Virus record (IMG/VR): IMGVR_UViG_3300011443_000015
Location: 2,274-66,273 of that record
Source: a virus
Lineage: Duplodnaviria > Caudoviricetes
Direction: 5' to 3' (one strand)
DNA length: 64,000 nt
The position numbers and the translations under genes were made by a program. Positions within the stretch are counted from its first letter, which is position 1; the number at the start of each line of letters is the position of its first letter. Under the pieces are notes generated by a model. It ran no database searches and had not been told where the DNA came from. It saw nothing but the letters and a program-made list of their open reading frames with translations. Below, piece after piece: positions 5,967-21,127 of this stretch.

Positions 5967-6818
5967 TCATGAGATCCTCTTGTCTGCTGCCTTAATCTCT
6001 TCTGGTGTCGCTGTCGGATAGATCCCCAGCTTCGCATTCTGCGCCAGTTTCCGCACGTCCTCCGGAAACGACGCCGAGAGAATCCAGTCGTAGTAACTCT
6101 TCGGCACCCGGTCCATCGGCACGTCGCGATGCTTTTTCAACATGCAGGTCGGCACGCCGTTCACCATCTTGAACGACCCGTCGGACGCCAACCACCCCGG
6201 CCACTGCAACTCGTGGAGCGCCTGGAGATCACGTGGGAGCACCTCGAAGCGCTGGAGCTGCCCGACGATCACCTCGGTCGACGCCCGCGCGTCGGTCAGG
6301 GCGCCGTGGGCCCCCTCAAGTTTTTCACCTTTGTATTTCTCGTAGAGATCCGACAACGTCCTCGGATGCGTGATCTGCTCCAGCCGTTCGCCGTCGAGAA
6401 TCTTCGCCTGACCATACTCCCACGGCACGCGCGCGAGGCCGAACTCGTAGGTCAACCGCACGAGGTCGAACCGGACATTCTTGCCGCCGAAGTCGCAGTG
6501 CGAGAAGCCGTGCGCCAGGTTGGTGGCGATCTGGTCGAAGCGCGGCGTGATGTGGAAGCGCTCGCACTGGCACTCGAGGCGCGGGCGCAGGCACGTCTGG
6601 CACGCCTCGATCATCTCGTCGGTGATGTTGTGGACCGCCGTCGACGCCGCAGGAATCGGGACGCCCGGATTGATCAGCGACCGATACTCCTTGATCAAGC
6701 CGGTCGCGTCCCAGACCTGGAAGCCGAGCTCGATGATGCGGGCCTCGGGGTGAACGCCCGTGGTTTCGGTATCGACGATGATCAAGGGGCGCGTGAGTGA
6801 GAGCAGTGTGTGGATCAT
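5967..6818 (-). CDS. DEDDh 3'-5' exonuclease (DnaQ/epsilon-like)
   Basis: IIVDTETTG, NVRFD, AHGALTDA motifs. Confidence 0.9.
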   Translation of the reverse strand: MIHTLLSLTRPLIIVDTETTGVHPEARIIELGFQVWDATGLIKEYRSLINPGVPIPAASTAVHNITDEMIEACQTCLRPRLECQCERFHITPRFDQIATNLAHGFSHCDFGGKNVRFDLVRLTYEFGLARVPWEYGQAKILDGERLEQITHPRTLSDLYEKYKGEKLEGAHGALTDARASTEVIVGQLQRFEVLPRDLQALHELQWPGWLASDGSFKMVNGVPTCMLKKHRDVPMDRVPKSYYDWILSASFPEDVRKLAQNAKLGIYPTATPEEIKAADKRIS

Positions 6819-7580: not shown

Positions 7581-8012
7581 TCATAGCGTTTGCGTGATCC
7601 TTCTCGTCCGCACAGGTACGTCGATCAATTTGAGAAACGCTTCGACGGTGTCGACGACGCGAATGCTTGGGTGGTCGATGTGATGGAAAATGTTCGACCG
7701 CCTGCCGACGATTACGATCTGCTTCGGAGAACTCCATGCCACGAGCCTCCGGTTCATAATGTGATAGAGCATGTAACCCAGCTCGACATGCCGCCCACCC
7801 GTGCCGGCGTTCTCAAATTCCGGCGGGTTATACGCAAGCAGCACGTCCGCCGCGTCGACGTCAGCGAGGTCGTCCCGCGCGCTGGCGTCGCTCTCGGACT
7901 CGTCTTCTCTCAGCCACCGGCTCGTCACCTCGTGGCCGACCGACTCGAGCTCCTCCATGATGCGGATCGCCTGGTCGCGGCAGGGATACGGAGCGGCGAT
8001 GTATATCTTCAT
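7581..8012 (-). CDS. Nucleoside 2-deoxyribosyltransferase-like / nucleotide N-glycosidase
   Basis: KIYIAAPY, DLADVDAADVLL, GRHVELGY motifs. Confidence 0.75.
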   Translation of the reverse strand: MKIYIAAPYPCRDQAIRIMEELESVGHEVTSRWLREDESESDASARDDLADVDAADVLLAYNPPEFENAGTGGRHVELGYMLYHIMNRRLVAWSSPKQIVIVGRRSNIFHHIDHPSIRVVDTVEAFLKLIDVPVRTRRITQTL

Positions 8013-8663: not shown

Positions 8664-9731
8664 TCACGACCTCATCGACATAATTACGTTGAGAAAACTT
8701 GATCCGTCCGTCACCAGCAACGGCGACCTTGCGTCCTTTAAATCTAGCACAACCTGCTGCCCCTCCGCTACCTCTAAAAAGTCCAGCAGATACTGCCCAC
8801 TCAAGGTCACGCGCATCGGCTCGCCGGCATAGTCCGCCGCGACCGTCTCCTGTGCGTCCCCGACCTCCTGGCTGCTCGAGGAGACCGAGAGCATGTCGGC
8901 ATCAAGGTCGAACACCATCGACTGATTCTCAGGCGCCACCATCGCCACGCGACGCACCGCCGAGGCGAGGGCTGCACGGCCGACCGTGGCCCGACGATCG
9001 TTGTTGCGCGGGATGATGCTCTGATAGGCGGGAAACTTGCCGGCGAGCATCCGCGAGAACAGCATTCGATGACCGACGCTGAAGAAGAGATGTCGCTCGT
9101 CCTGCGAAAAGACCATCTCGCCGCCCGCGAAGAGGCCCATCAGCATGTCCAGGGCCTTGGTCGGCAGCAGCACCGAGGTGGCCGCGCCCGCCTGCGACAT
9201 GGTCGCGAGGGAGAGCCGCTTGCCGTCCGTGGCAACAAGGCCGCACACGTTGTCGGCGACGCTAAGCAGCGCGCCCTTGATGACGAAGTTCGAACCCTTG
9301 TCGGTGATGGCGTAGCGGACGCGCTTGATCATCTGTTGCAGGGCGGCGGTTGAGAAGGATGTCGGCTCCCCTGCGACCTCGGGGGCCTGGGGGAAGTCGT
9401 CAGGTGGAAGCGTCTGCAACCGCGAGCGGAACTGGCCGGAGAGGATGTGCACGTGCTTCGCGTCGGTGACAATCTGCACGTCCGTATCCGGCAGTTGCTC
9501 GACGAGGTCCAACAGACGCTTCGCGGGCAGCGTGATCACGCCGGGCTCGTCGATCTGTGCCTGACAGCCGGTGCTGAAGCCGACCTCGAGGTCGGAGGCA
9601 AAGAGGTGCAGGTGGTCGTCTGCACGCAGCAGGACGTTCATCAGGATCGGCAGCGGCGGCTTGACGGCGGCGACCTGGTTGATGAGACGAAGTTCTTGGA
9701 CGAGGGTCGTGCTGTTGACGGTGATGTTCAT
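8664..9731 (-). CDS. dnaN: DNA polymerase III beta sliding clamp homolog
   Basis: 355 aa; PILMNVLL, ASDLEV, ATDGKRL, GKFPAYQSIIP motifs. Confidence 0.92.
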   Translation of the reverse strand: MNITVNSTTLVQELRLINQVAAVKPPLPILMNVLLRADDHLHLFASDLEVGFSTGCQAQIDEPGVITLPAKRLLDLVEQLPDTDVQIVTDAKHVHILSGQFRSRLQTLPPDDFPQAPEVAGEPTSFSTAALQQMIKRVRYAITDKGSNFVIKGALLSVADNVCGLVATDGKRLSLATMSQAGAATSVLLPTKALDMLMGLFAGGEMVFSQDERHLFFSVGHRMLFSRMLAGKFPAYQSIIPRNNDRRATVGRAALASAVRRVAMVAPENQSMVFDLDADMLSVSSSSQEVGDAQETVAADYAGEPMRVTLSGQYLLDFLEVAEGQQVVLDLKDARSPLLVTDGSSFLNVIMSMRS

Positions 9732-10120
9732 ATGCCGTGTGCTTTCCTAATCTGTTCAACCAACCACCGATGATCGAAGCCCGCGCACCAGGCTTCGGGC
9801 AGCACGTCCCATGTCGTGCGCTCTAAGATGTGACGCGGGTGCACAATCACTGTGCGCTCGAGGCCCTTGCGTTCCTGCCACAACACATAGCGGCAATGTC
9901 CGCCGTTGACCGCGATGCGCGTGCAGAGCAGTGCCTGGTTGTCCGGCGAGTCGAAGTCCGGCGTTGCGTGCTTGCACTCCCAGTTCGTCTGCCGCCCTGC
10001 GCCAACGATCGAGCGGTCGGGGGCGCCTGCCGTCGCGTAGCGGAGGACGTAGAAGTTCGGACACTGACGCGCCAGCTCCTTCGTCAGGGCGGACTTGAGC
10101 TCCCCCTCGCGCTTAGACAT
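9728..10120 (-). CDS. VRR-NUC-like (PD-(D/E)xK) nuclease
   Basis: GAPDR...WECK motif; start reassigned to MSKREGELK. Confidence 0.65.
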   Translation of the reverse strand: MSKREGELKSALTKELARQCPNFYVLRYATAGAPDRSIVGAGRQTNWECKHATPDFDSPDNQALLCTRIAVNGGHCRYVLWQERKGLERTVIVHPRHILERTTWDVLPEAWCAGFDHRWLVEQIRKAHGI

Positions 10121-10334
10121 CTCTCTTCCGTTTCTTTCTACGTGCGTCAAACCCGCTCCTCCAGGCATCCCTACGACACGCAATGAGCGCCGCGTAGACC
10201 CCCTGCGTTCGAACAATGTCCATATATCGCTGAAGGACACGATCCTGTCGAACCTTGCCACTCACGAGGCCGCCCTCGCGGCCGATGACCGCACGCTGCT
10301 CGCGTGTGAAGGGGTGGTTCGTGCCCTTAGGCAT
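10113..10334 (-). CDS. Small basic protein with GREGG (KGG-like) motif
   Basis: REQRAVIGREGG; basic tail; TAATG coupling. Confidence 0.5.
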   Translation of the reverse strand: MPKGTNHPFTREQRAVIGREGGLVSGKVRQDRVLQRYMDIVRTQGVYAALIACRRDAWRSGFDARRKKRKRDV

Positions 10335-10353: not shown

Positions 10354-13300
10354 TTACTTCGCCTCTGCCCACGTCGCCCCCTCGGCGCACTCCCACAGAA
10401 TCGGTACCTTCAGTTGCGAGAAAGACTGTCTATTTAAAATCTCCGACACCCGCGCCAACGTCTCTGGCTCCTGCGCATCCCCCGCCACCGAGTCGTGAAT
10501 CGTTAGCCGCATCAGGAACCCCGTCGTCCTGCGCTCGGCGTGCAACTCCACGAGCTTGCGCTTCATAACATCGGCCGCGCTACCTTGAATTACTCGGTTC
10601 AAGGCTTTATAGGTTTTCCAGTTCTTCGGGAAACGCGAACGCCGTCCGAGCAGCGTGCGCACGTATCCTCGATGCGGAAGGTCTGCATGCAGTTGTCGGA
10701 TACGGTCTGCATGCTTCCCCTGCTTTTTGCAGTCTTGATCACAGACGGACTTCGCGAGATGCGAGGCCCGGGCCTGCAGATGGTCGACCTCCGGCATCAC
10801 TTGTTCGTAGATCCTTTGGATAGCCTTGGCCGGTGCAAGAAGGGGATCGTCCCACTTACGCGCGTTGTTCGGATCGCTCTGGATCTCCGCATACTGCTGC
10901 TTCGTGATGAACTCCATCATCAGCGCCAGCTTTGAGAGGCCCCCGCCGTACATCTTCATAAAGTTCATGGACTTCTGCCACGTGTACTTCATGTCGGGTT
11001 TGTGGACCTTCATCAGCGCCCACATGAACTTATGAAACGACATCCCAGGGTCCGCCTGATAGGCAGCGAGGACCTTCGGATTGTTGGCAAAGTGGGCAAA
11101 AATGCGGTACTCGATCTGCGCTGCGTCCGCGTTCAGATACTGCCCGCGCGCTGCCTTGAAGAGACGCCTCGGATAGAGATCCTCACCGAACGTCGCAAAG
11201 TGGTTGTCATGGTTCGGCACCTGCTGCACATACCCAATAGAGAACCGCCCGCTGACCGTCCCGCCATCATCCCCGCGAAGCTGGTTGATGTCGTAGTACA
11301 GCACCCCATCCGGCCCGATCTGCTTCTTGTACGCCGCGAACGTCTTGCTGTCCAGCGACGCGAGCTGCGCCGCGAGGTGGCCCTTCTTGATCAGCGGATG
11401 ATCGATTGCCCCGATGACATCCTCCGCGTAGCTCTCCGAGGGCGTCAGATGGCAGTACTCAAACATCCGCTGCCACCCCGCCGCCGTGTGCTCGAAGGCG
11501 AAGCCGACCTCGTTCGAGATCTCGTGAATCAGGGCATCGTGCCGCGTCGTGCACTCCGTGTGGTACTGCTCGAGCAGCTCGAGGTCGAGCGGCGACCCGT
11601 TCTTCTCCATCTCGACAACGGGATAGATCACCTCGTCCTCGAGCTGCCGCACGCCCTGCAGCTCCTGCGCGTCAAGCTCCGGCCACATCTTCTCGCGCAG
11701 CTGCGCGACGAGCTGGGCCTGATACTCGGCGCGTGCCGCGACCTCACCGGCGTGGTAGCCCGCCATGTTGCGCTCGTCGACACGCGGGACCTCGATGCCG
11801 CCGAGGTAGTCCTTCGCGAGCACATCGAGGGCAAACTTCTTGCGGTGATCGTCGAGCAGCGCCGCGTAGTGCATCACGTCGCTGACGGTGTTACCCTGCT
11901 CCTCGAGGTCGATGCCCCAGACGCGCGACATGTGCACGTCGAAGCGCGTGTTCACGTTCGTGATGTGCTTGCCCCGCAACTCGCGTCGCGCCCACTCCCT
12001 GACCTGCTCCTCGTCGAGGTTGCCGCCGGCAAAGCCGAAGGGCAGAAAGCACTTCAGCCCGCCGTCCAGGGTGCCGACGGTCACGCCGATCGGGCGGTCG
12101 CCGTGCACCCAGTCGAGGCCGTTGGTCTCGAAGTTGAGAACGATGTTGTCGATGCCGTCGAGCGACGGCGGGGTCTGCGCCTGCCAGTCGGGTGTCGCCG
12201 CTAGCGGCCGCGTGCCGAGAAAGTCCGCTAGCGAGCTGCCGACAGGTGAGGCGACCTCGACCCTGGGCAGCGGGCCGGGAAGCTCGACCGTAGCCAGCCC
12301 GAAGGCGAGTGCCGAGGGCGCCTCGGATGCCGCGCCTGAGGCCGCTGTTGGCCGTGTTTGGGGCGATTCCGGCCGGGCCGGGCGGATAGCCGAGTCCGTT
12401 GGGCGGGCCGCCTCCGGGCCGCCTGCCGCCGGGCCGCCTGCCGCGATGGCCTGCGCGGCCAGCTTCGGGTCACCCTTGCAGAAAATCAGCACATTCTGGT
12501 GCGTCTTCCCGAGCTTGCGCGACGTCTCGAACTGCTTCGTCACGCGAATCGGCAGCGAGCCGACGGACGTGATGAGGATCGCCTCGTTGTAGAGCGCCGC
12601 GCCCGCGCCCATGAACGACGCGCAGGTCAGCGGCACGAAGCCGCGATACAGACCCGTCTGCTTGTCGCGGTACTCACCGACCACGAAGCAGGCAAACCGG
12701 TTCGGCTTCAGCCGCGCGAGACCATTCTTGATGATTGACATGTACATCTTGACGAAGCCATTCCAGGTCATCGCCGAGAGGTCGTTCGGGTCGTCGCTGT
12801 ACTGCTCCAGATCACCATAGGGCGGGCAGGAGAACAGAAAGTCCGCCTCGGGTGCCTCGGCCAGCTTCAGGTTGCTGTCGCCGACGGCCCACTGAATGTC
12901 AGCGTCGGGGGCAATGAGCTCGCGTTGCGCCTCGTTGGCGGCGATTTGCTCGGGGCGGAGGTCGATGCCGTGATACTTGAAGCCGAGGAGGCCGGCGACG
13001 ATGCCGCGCACGCTACCGCCCGCGAATGGGTCGACGATCTGACCACCTGGTGGGCAGAACCAGCGGTAGCAGAGTTCGGTGAGGACGGGGTCGAAGATCG
13101 AGGTGCCAGAGCCCTTGTTGTCCTCCTGCTGCCAGCCATTCTCGGGTGACGCACCGAGACCCATACCAAATGTCTTACCGAACCGAGCTTCTCGTTTCTC
13201 CGGATCAGGCTCCAGCAGCGTATCCGACAGCTTCAGCAGGTTCTCACCGCGCCCCACCTCCGACTGGATGCCCATCGACAACCACGCCCGCTTCCGCTCC

Positions 13301-13551
13301 TGCCACGGCCCCTCGCGCGCGTTCAGCACCGTGAAGGGCGGGAAGTCGAAGCGCTCGCGGAGCTTGCCTGAGGCGTCTTGCTTGATCTCGTTACCAAAAA
13401 GGTCACTACCGAGCAGGTGAAACGGCTTCGCGCCACTGAAGTACTTGCTATTCGGCCCGCCGCCACCGCCGGGCTCCGCAGCCTTCGCGCGTGCGCGCGC
13501 TTCGTCGTCGAGACCGACGAAGCGGTCAGTCTGTTTGTCGAAGTCAGTCAT
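10354..13551 (-). CDS. Fusion: amino-DNA-methyltransferase plus family A DNA polymerase
   Basis: N-part DPFAGGS (SAM motif I) and FSCPPY (motif IV); ~80 aa Ala/Pro linker; degenerate 3'-5' exonuclease domain; PolA motifs TVSGRFS, DAAQIEYR (A), KSMNFMKMYG (B), IHDS (C); start ATG 13551 overlaps the PLP gene stop. Confidence 0.88.
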   Translation of the reverse strand: MTDFDKQTDRFVGLDDEARARAKAAEPGGGGGPNSKYFSGAKPFHLLGSDLFGNEIKQDASGKLRERFDFPPFTVLNAREGPWQERKRAWLSMGIQSEVGRGENLLKLSDTLLEPDPEKREARFGKTFGMGLGASPENGWQQEDNKGSGTSIFDPVLTELCYRWFCPPGGQIVDPFAGGSVRGIVAGLLGFKYHGIDLRPEQIAANEAQRELIAPDADIQWAVGDSNLKLAEAPEADFLFSCPPYGDLEQYSDDPNDLSAMTWNGFVKMYMSIIKNGLARLKPNRFACFVVGEYRDKQTGLYRGFVPLTCASFMGAGAALYNEAILITSVGSLPIRVTKQFETSRKLGKTHQNVLIFCKGDPKLAAQAIAAGGPAAGGPEAARPTDSAIRPARPESPQTRPTAASGAASEAPSALAFGLATVELPGPLPRVEVASPVGSSLADFLGTRPLAATPDWQAQTPPSLDGIDNIVLNFETNGLDWVHGDRPIGVTVGTLDGGLKCFLPFGFAGGNLDEEQVREWARRELRGKHITNVNTRFDVHMSRVWGIDLEEQGNTVSDVMHYAALLDDHRKKFALDVLAKDYLGGIEVPRVDERNMAGYHAGEVAARAEYQAQLVAQLREKMWPELDAQELQGVRQLEDEVIYPVVEMEKNGSPLDLELLEQYHTECTTRHDALIHEISNEVGFAFEHTAAGWQRMFEYCHLTPSESYAEDVIGAIDHPLIKKGHLAAQLASLDSKTFAAYKKQIGPDGVLYYDINQLRGDDGGTVSGRFSIGYVQQVPNHDNHFATFGEDLYPRRLFKAARGQYLNADAAQIEYRIFAHFANNPKVLAAYQADPGMSFHKFMWALMKVHKPDMKYTWQKSMNFMKMYGGGLSKLALMMEFITKQQYAEIQSDPNNARKWDDPLLAPAKAIQRIYEQVMPEVDHLQARASHLAKSVCDQDCKKQGKHADRIRQLHADLPHRGYVRTLLGRRSRFPKNWKTYKALNRVIQGSAADVMKRKLVELHAERRTTGFLMRLTIHDSVAGDAQEPETLARVSEILNRQSFSQLKVPILWECAEGATWAEAK

Positions 13552-14240
13552 CAGCTCCCTACGTTCCAAAAAAGAGCATCGGGCGACGCGTGCTGCTTCA
13601 TGATACTCCAGCACTTCGCGTCATAATGCCCGCACGACGGAAACGGCGGCTGAACCCATGCATTCTCCTCGTACTTCTCCGGCGCCGTCCACACCCGCGC
13701 CCTGCCAGCATCGGGCACCGCCCCGATGCGCACGACGTTGAACGCTGCTTCGGGCCACGCCAACTGCAACGCCCGCGTCAGGCACCCGCTGCCGGCGACC
13801 GACCACACCTCCTGAGGGGGCCGTATCGGCAGTCGCCGTGCGACCTCCGCCAGCGCCTCGACAAATGCTGGACAATCGAGGCCGAAGGGCAGCAGCTTCG
13901 CACCCTGCAGCGCACAGTATTCACGCGCCCGTGCCTTCACCACATTCAGATAACCGTGCGGCACCTCGTAGATCGACGCGCCCGCCTTCCAGGCCTGCTC
14001 CGTCAGGGGATACATGACCTTCCGCTTCGCGCAGAAGATCGTCGCGCGCTTGCCGTGGTCGCAAGCCGCGTAAGCGAGGGCGAGCTGCGCGTAGCCGTAG
14101 ACGGGGCTCGGGTAAACGTATTCCGTGTGCGTGTCGAAGAGCACGTGGATGGCACGGCGCTTCGTGCCGCCGAGGAGCAGGTCGTCGCGGACGACTTGGA
14201 AGCCGTCGTGCTCGGCGATGGTGGGATCAGGCAGCGTCAT
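13551..14240 (-). CDS. PLP-dependent enzyme, fold type II (ACC deaminase/D-Cys desulfhydrase-like)
   Basis: VVRDDL..GGTKRR (PLP Lys), VAGSG phosphate loop, YDAK. Confidence 0.8.
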   Translation of the reverse strand: MTLPDPTIAEHDGFQVVRDDLLLGGTKRRAIHVLFDTHTEYVYPSPVYGYAQLALAYAACDHGKRATIFCAKRKVMYPLTEQAWKAGASIYEVPHGYLNVVKARAREYCALQGAKLLPFGLDCPAFVEALAEVARRLPIRPPQEVWSVAGSGCLTRALQLAWPEAAFNVVRIGAVPDAGRARVWTAPEKYEENAWVQPPFPSCGHYDAKCWSIMKQHASPDALFWNVGS

Positions 14241-20776: not shown

Positions 20777-21127
20777 ATGCAGAGCCTCGCGGACTTCCTC
20801 GGCGTGAACCCCCTGCCCGATGCACCGCAGGAGCCGACGCTGGTCGACATCACCGACCCGGCAGCCTTCGCGCGTGCCGTGCTTGAGTCCCGCGAGTTCC
20901 GTCAATACATCGTGACCGGCCTGACCCTCGGGAACCTGCCAGGCTTCACGTCGATCCTTCAGCGGTTGATGGATGCCGCCGGCAACTGGCCGAAGGCGAC
21001 GAGCCGCATCGAGCACACCGGCAAGGATGGCGATCCGATTGTCACCGAGGTCCGCCGCGTGATTGTGCGCGCCGAAACCTCGTTTGATGATGAGAAGGCC
21101 GACGAGCGTCCTGTAACGACCCACTGA
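20777..21127 (+). CDS. terS: Terminase small subunit
   Basis: Position upstream of TerL; C-terminal IEHTGKDGDPI. Confidence 0.7.
   Translation: MQSLADFLGVNPLPDAPQEPTLVDITDPAAFARAVLESREFRQYIVTGLTLGNLPGFTSILQRLMDAAGNWPKATSRIEHTGKDGDPIVTEVRRVIVRAETSFDDEKADERPVTTH

Follow-up and report, generated by a model that had tools for sequence, protein, structure and literature searches.

Can a phage build its DNA-modifying enzyme into its own replicative polymerase? The question is raised by one gene of the IMG/VR virus record IMGVR_UViG_3300011443_000015 (Duplodnaviria; Caudoviricetes), a 66.3-kb record estimated to be 78% complete, of which a 64-kb window (positions 2,274 to 66,273) was analyzed here. 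The gene (10354..13551 of the window, minus strand) encodes a transferase with the motif CPPY, a disordered linker and a family A DNA polymerase in a single open reading frame (ORF; 1065 aa, 118.1 kDa), which a first-pass annotation of the same DNA had interpreted as a methyltransferase-like domain tethering modification to the replication fork. The fusion proved to be conserved among metagenomic relatives and its N-terminal segment to be exchangeable within one polymerase clade; we consider it probable that a tethered S-adenosylmethionine (SAM)-dependent DNA-base transferase marks phage DNA at replication.

A transferase and a polymerase in one reading frame

The longest minus-strand frame runs from 13614 to 10354, with a likely start at ATG 13551 and the stop codon at 10354..10356. 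This ATG is preceded by an AGGGAG Shine-Dalgarno sequence and overlaps the stop of an upstream 229-aa gene as TGATG. Both domains were recovered by profile within the 1065-aa ORF, together with the motifs quoted in the first-pass annotation, and its failure to see a convincing internal start was borne out: residues 355-481 contain no in-frame ATG, GTG or TTG, which ruled out a separate polymerase made from an internal start, and both flanking GTGs lack a Shine-Dalgarno sequence. An AlphaFold model computed from 21 aligned fused orthologues resolved two confident modules joined by residues 372-449, which had per-residue confidence scores (pLDDTs) below 50 and were disordered except for a four-residue helix at 441-444. 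The Ala/Pro linker, initially put at ~80 aa, corresponds by composition and pLDDT to a disordered, Ala/Pro/Gly-rich tether at residues 371-439 (~70-80 aa; 12235..12441, minus strand), inside which lies a weakly conserved ALxFAL-like peptide (12295..12312, minus strand).

The same two-domain architecture was found in at least 22 other proteins, all metagenomic and in frame (41-72% identity), after searching 5.8 billion proteins for orthologues, with matches from Logan, ENA, JGI and NCBI assemblies. DPFAGGS and FSCPPYG are kept in all fused orthologues, whose linkers span 61-300 aa and are Ala/Pro-rich in every case, and the transferase domain (63-79% identity among fusions) is better conserved than the exo domain (50-77%). 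A second contig (P0002) encodes a protein that is identical across the linker. At the level of sequence, the fusion is thereby confirmed as real and conserved. The architecture had been described as unfamiliar from characterized phages, and indeed the fused form is absent from all 50,697 cultured phage records, in which only the separate halves match. No account of a natural fusion was found in the literature searched, with a mention possible in Iyer et al. 2013. Two homologues, P0015 (1572 aa) and P0119 (1335 aa), contain LAGLIDADG/intein-type Pfam families; the P0015 insertion separates motif I of the CPPY domain from motif IV.

The N-terminal module (residues 44-370; 12442..13422, minus strand) has a SAM-dependent amino-methyltransferase fold according to PHROG profiles, AlphaFold 2 and Foldseek, and matches phrog_12517 (E-value 4e-95) and phrog_498, annotated as DNA methyltransferase (E-value 6e-70), the PHROG family assignment covering residues 56-370. 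It comprises a conserved N-terminal region (FPPF..W.ERKR.W) and a Rossmann core (residues 153-371; pLDDT 80-98) for which all top Foldseek matches are class I methyltransferases, the best being TrmN (3tma). The SAM-binding motif I, DPFAGGS (residues 174-180; 13012..13032, minus strand), is unchanged in 113 of 120 stand-alone relatives and precedes motif IV, FSCPPYG (residues 240-246; 12814..12834, minus strand); compared with the beta-class model of Pfam, this order is permuted. The same permutation is apparent in orthologue P0010, which matches N6_N4_Mtase (PF01555) at 39.8 bits with the N-terminal part of the profile aligning after motif I. HQNVLIFCKGD, also pointed out in the first-pass annotation, is present and ends at residue 361. 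A test for the (D/N/S)PP(Y/F/W) form of motif IV failed, as Cys occupies the D/N/S position of amino-methyltransferases; the resulting CPPY, which aligns with DPPYG of Trm-G10, is invariant in the fusions and in the 120 stand-alone relatives. The CPPY family is very large (at least 8000 matches, most of them stand-alone and 300-360 aa long) and is fused to ParB in cultured phages, namely Erythrobacter phages R6L and ZS04, Listeria phage B054, mycobacteriophages and Pam4. Because ParB domains bind DNA, we take DNA as the putative substrate. No paper pairing 'CPPY' with methyltransferase was found in the literature searched, NCBIfam has no model for the transferase domain or for the product of the upstream 229-aa gene, and a search of the ESM Atlas gave no usable match.

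The C-terminal module is a family A polymerase (residues 456-1065; 10357..12186, minus strand) that matches DNA_pol_A (PF00476) over its length at 88.4 bits (cut-off 34.3; E-value 6e-25), and the PHROG DNA polymerase family phrog_17 on residues 468-1064 (E-value 8e-56). Motif A (DAAQIEYR) and motif B (K..NF...YG) are canonical, and motif C reads HDS rather than HDE, as does the aligned chain of the best solved sequence relative, 7pbk (E-value 5e-23). The HDS motif is a likeness to DpoZ-type polymerases such as 7pbk, and one cultured-phage polymerase match is annotated DpoZ, but identity to this type is only ~25-27%. A 2-aminoadenine (Z) genome, considered on account of these DpoZ-like matches, was rejected because PurZ (PF00709) is absent from the 66-kb record. 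A test for the DxE of Exo I failed as well: the site is a degenerate NFE (12118-12138, minus strand), and among the 21 fused orthologues it is NFA in 12 and carries Asn in 19, so that proofreading by the polymerase's own exo-like domain appears doubtful. A separate RNase_T/DEDDh exonuclease gene (5967..6818, minus strand) may proofread in trans.

An exchangeable N-terminal segment

A short linear motif, SLADFLG (12214..12234, minus strand; conservation 15-20 of 21), marks the start of the polymerase module. In the form SLAxFLG it stands ~17 residues before the exo-like domain in nearly all of the 121 closest polymerase homologues (about 100), and stand-alone polymerases begin with (S/T)LAxFLG. 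When sister polymerases with heterologous N-termini were aligned, homology started no more than four residues from (S/T)LAxFLG in three of the four pairs tested; since stand-alone polymerases also open with this motif, the polymerase module begins there. In the CPPY/TAGT sisters P0021/P0110, homology reaches ~250 residues upstream of SLAxFLG, so some long 'linkers' must hold a further shared segment. QSLADFLG/SSLADFLG occurs twice, where the polymerase module begins and as residues 2-9 of a 116-aa gene (20777..21127, plus strand) just upstream of the large terminase gene. SLAxFLG resembles clamp-docking peptides, and its candidate partner is most plausibly the phage DnaN encoded next door.

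The 121 homologues were classed by comparing their N-termini against reference domains, after single-linkage BLAST clustering of the extensions had been dropped because low-complexity linkers merged all of them. An N-terminal CPPY domain is present in 25 of the 121, and 43 carry TAGT (TET-associated glycosyltransferase, a domain reportedly defined by Iyer et al. 2013; PF20691, E-value 2e-37 in P0029). A second methylase-like domain with the motif SPPY accounts for 12 (weak PF01555 motif IV matches; a sequence search against solved structures was without match) and ParB_N for one, while about 19 have extensions shorter than 120 residues and 21 have extensions matching no reference domain.

On a maximum-likelihood tree of the polymerase part only (69 rows, IQ-TREE), the CPPY label changes 13 times, and at least 11 of these changes are forced by branches with Shimodaira-Hasegawa-like approximate likelihood ratio test (SH-aLRT) support of at least 95. 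In 500 shuffles of the labels, the number of changes was always higher. The label is therefore clustered yet far from a single origin. CPPY and TAGT polymerases are sisters in two well-supported pairs (P0019/P0040, SH-aLRT 97; P0021/P0110, 99) and CPPY and ParB polymerases in another (P0012/P0077, 99). Judged by these comparisons, the segment N-terminal to SLAxFLG is an exchangeable cassette that has been swapped many times, and the occurrence of four kinds of module in one N-terminal slot lends comparative support to the early proposal that a DNA-modifying activity is tethered to the polymerase.

Polymerase genes have been found beside modification genes in phage TET/5mYOX-glycosyltransferase clusters (PMC8256090; bioRxiv 10.1101/2023.12.21.572611). 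These reports describe adjacency only and no polymerase fusion: the words 'fused' and 'fusion' do not appear in the 2023 preprint, and the sole mention of 'fusion' in Burke et al. 2021 (PMC8256090) concerns eukaryotic methyltransferases. The likeness to the present system lies in the TAGT that fills the same slot of sister polymerases, whereas the window has CPPY. The 7-10 kb around two TAGT-PolA genes showed no TET/5mYOX gene. The ParB-polymerase variant is in keeping with the known activation of a phage DNA dioxygenase by a ParB homologue (PMC13229309).

The PLP partner and the genomic setting

The 229-aa gene directly upstream of the fusion (13551..14240, minus strand), translationally coupled to it through TGATG, encodes a protein resembling fold-type-II pyridoxal 5'-phosphate (PLP) enzymes (phrog_7093, E-value 3e-34). 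A PLP homologue is found in this position in all five fusion loci examined (the window, L002, L004, L093 and L094), including loci that are distant on the polymerase tree. In the closest unfused relative, L008/L009, the order is polA, ~3 kb of other genes, the PLP gene, the CPPY gene and dnaN. Among 80 IMG/VR loci encoding the CPPY enzyme, 19 have a PLP homologue, in most cases next to the enzyme gene and usually downstream. The association extends to nesting: a PLP domain (Pfam PALP, 35.5 bits against a cut-off of 35) separates motifs I/II of Pam4 gp70 from motifs III/IV, and Erythrobacter phages R6L (gp1) and ZS04 likewise carry one inside the enzyme. Taken together, these gene arrangements indicate that the PLP gene and the CPPY domain are a mobile cassette. 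In one phage contig, an IS605-type TnpB gene separates the PLP gene from the CPPY gene (L010:6595-7671).

Sequence similarity gives some indication of what the PLP protein may do. By BLASTP it matches M6 gp52 of a Pseudomonas phage (E-value 9e-6, 21% identity over 150 residues), which was purified and found to be a PLP-dependent decarboxylase of an amino-acid:thymine conjugate in polymeric DNA (PMC8989533); a sequence search of the PDB gave no match. The window protein shares phrog_7093 with the decarboxylases M6 gp52 and ViI gp226, and its alignment with gp52 runs to the shared C-terminal FWN(V/I)G, but its partner in the window is a SAM enzyme, and scanning of window proteins brought up neither a 5-hydroxymethyldeoxyuridine kinase nor an amino-acid:DNA transferase. 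The N-terminal domain is an atypical member of the CPPY family, and as it is also paired with a PLP enzyme in the fusion loci, its mark may differ from a methyl group; from sequence, the product of the PLP and CPPY cassette may exceed a plain methyl.

This opens an alternative that keeps the tethering and changes the chemistry, in which the CPPY enzyme would transfer a 3-amino-3-carboxypropyl or other amine-bearing group and the PLP enzyme would trim it, for example by decarboxylation. We regard it as possible, although doubtful. It draws on the constant presence of the PLP gene upstream of the fusions and its retention in unfused relatives, on the 19 IMG/VR loci and the nested forms, on the resemblance to a proven decarboxylase, and on the family-wide Cys in place of D/N/S in motif IV. 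However, no PLP gene lies within reach at the other 61 of the 80 loci and the catalytic motifs there are unchanged, so the core enzyme may simply methylate; in addition, the similarity to M6 gp52 is remote and the PLP protein may instead be a subunit with an accessory or structural role. A more specific version, which we put forward tentatively and hold to be rather unlikely, sees a plug-in polymerase lineage in which any of several hypermodification cassettes could be recombined ahead of a docking peptide, and in which PLP and CPPY together would make a non-methyl, SAM-derived base mark of the amino(carboxy)propyl type as the DNA leaves the polymerase.

The fusion gene belongs to a minus-strand replication module that includes an SNF2 helicase, the DEDDh exonuclease, a sigma-70 region 4 protein, DnaN and the PLP-like gene, and that faces plus-strand genes for a VapE primase-helicase, terminase and portal. 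The same gene backbone was found in every related locus fetched, and the DnaN beta sliding clamp gene (8664..9731, minus strand) is syntenic with the polymerase in each of them. A variable island separates polA from dnaN, occupied in the window by an unannotated 177-aa gene (9728-10261, minus strand), in a TAGT-PolA phage by Methyltransf_21, UDG-like and MT-A70 domains (L095:10756-12731) and in the unfused relative by Dam (L008:4804-7325). A CPPY-PolA phage (L094:8304-10589) encodes a 761-aa protein combining ResIII/Helicase_C with an N6_N4 methylase domain, another replication-type motor joined to a methylase. A weak nucleoside 2-deoxyribosyltransferase-like gene in the window (7581-8012, minus strand; PF05014, E-value 0.0016), syntenic in L002 and L095, may bear on nucleotide or base metabolism.

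Proposed co-replicative modification and its alternatives

The reading that we prefer, a SAM-dependent DNA-base transferase tethered to the polymerase and marking phage DNA at replication, would work as follows. The flexible Ala/Pro tether of ~70-80 residues would hold the CPPY enzyme within reach of the DNA at the polymerase, so that the modifying enzyme is brought to the fork and template or nascent phage DNA could be marked during synthesis. The mark would then be set ahead of attack by host nucleases, allowing phage DNA to escape. The shared partner on which SLAxFLG would dock is most plausibly DnaN of the phage itself, and the upstream PLP enzyme, which travels with the CPPY cassette, would probably take part in this modification step or in the one that follows. 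From comparison we infer DNA as the substrate, modification in the course of replication, protection from restriction, docking on the clamp and the chemical nature of the mark; as a whole, a co-replicative DNA-modification function appears well supported by the sequences.

Two known systems help to place the window protein. M.EcoGIX and M.BceJIII are promiscuous orphan N6-methyladenine methyltransferases of plasmids with an anti-restriction role, which take single strands as substrate and purify together with E. coli Pol I; activity lasted through three purification columns only when they were engineered into MTase::PolI fusions of 130-132 kDa, which kept both activities and in which nick translation raised methylation ~4-fold (PMC7736820). 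Fomenkov et al. 2020 (PMC7736820) make no mention of a natural methyltransferase-polymerase fusion. The window protein resembles this type in partnering a DNA-modifying enzyme with a family A polymerase, here through a covalent link. It is set apart by description, since M.EcoGIX-type enzymes are beta-class, DPPY-bearing, separate proteins that rely on host Pol I, whereas the window enzyme has CPPY, the order I then IV and a phage polymerase. The same enzyme family, with or without a nested PLP domain, is found in the ParB-CPPY phages, represented by Erythrobacter phage vB_EliS_R6L (gp1), Pseudanabaena phage Pam4 (gp70) and Microcystis phage Mae-JY30, whose enzymes share 52-64% identity and both DPFAGGS and FSCPPYG with that of the window, and whose PLP partners share 48-51% identity. 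In these phages, however, targeting is by ParB and there is no link to a polymerase, whereas the window enzyme is without ParB and continues into PolA. No biochemical characterization of the ParB-CPPY phage enzymes was found in the literature searched.

Several observations weigh against a tethered, DNA-directed transferase. In the close relative L008/L009, the CPPY enzyme is unfused and encoded ~3 kb from polA, and no polymerase of the window type occurs at any of the 80 IMG/VR CPPY loci. The first of these observations means that the fusion is a derived state rather than a universal one, and the two combined mean that the activity of the enzyme needs no tethering. The first-pass annotation had asked whether close relatives have split genes; the unfused enzyme of L008/L009 is not adjacent to polA and does not represent the same gene split in two. 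Post-translational cleavage of the tether could also occur. The window domain itself matches PF01555 at only 22.7 bits, under the cut-off of 26.7 and at the motif I end only, its best solved matches are tRNA N2-methylguanosine methyltransferases with DPPYG (Trm-G10, 5e71; TrmN, 3tma), and by sequence alone an RNA substrate is conceivable. Lastly, the polymerase tree was obtained with the quick search of IQ-TREE and has SH-aLRT support only.

Separate action of the two halves, through cleavage of the linker or with the fusion serving solely as a co-expression device, is an unlikely alternative. It could account for a linker that is long, disordered and variable (61-300 aa), and for an enzyme that works unfused in most phages. 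Nevertheless, no conserved cleavage motif was found in the linker, and four unrelated modification modules have repeatedly been recruited to exactly the same position. Co-expression is also a poor explanation for a phage that already uses operon coupling by TGATG next door.

We consider it very unlikely that RNA (primers or tRNA) is the substrate of the N-terminal domain, or that this domain is a non-catalytic nucleic-acid-binding or processivity module, as could be supposed from its resemblance to Trm-G10 and TrmN and from the sub-threshold Pfam DNA-methylase match. The tRNA methyltransferase matches mainly reflect a common motif order and the class I fold, and fold searches that keep sequence order trivially favor non-permuted RNA methyltransferases. 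Moreover, thousands of relatives share the SAM motif and motif IV without variation, and the family is fused to ParB or encoded beside terminase or replication genes. As for an artefact in which a sequencing or assembly indel erased a stop between two genes, the linker is indeed 76% G+C, but such an error is effectively excluded by sequence because the frame is kept in at least 22 independent orthologues whose linkers differ in sequence and length, and because the P0002 protein is identical across the linker and a separate polymerase would have no start codon.

Phage DNA modification is usually described as pre-replicative, through altered dNTP (deoxynucleoside triphosphate) pools, or post-replicative, through free enzymes acting on duplex DNA. 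What is new here is the polymerase fusion together with the exchange of N-terminal cassettes in one polymerase clade. The fusion offers a natural counterpart of the MTase::PolI proteins engineered to stabilize M.EcoGIX activity, and it makes the coupling of methyltransferase and polymerase directly testable with one recombinant protein. The CPPY-PLP pair is abundant, and the polymerase fusion also provides a practical handle for chemistry assays on primed templates, and the SLAxFLG boundary may serve in the design of polymerases that write modifications. If the plug-in lineage with a non-methyl mark were true, it would represent a polymerase-tethered hypermodification machine and a DNA mark not previously described. 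If tethered marking at replication is true, it would constitute a third, co-replicative mode of phage DNA modification for which four enzyme types have been recruited, and would explain how DNA is marked before host nucleases see it.

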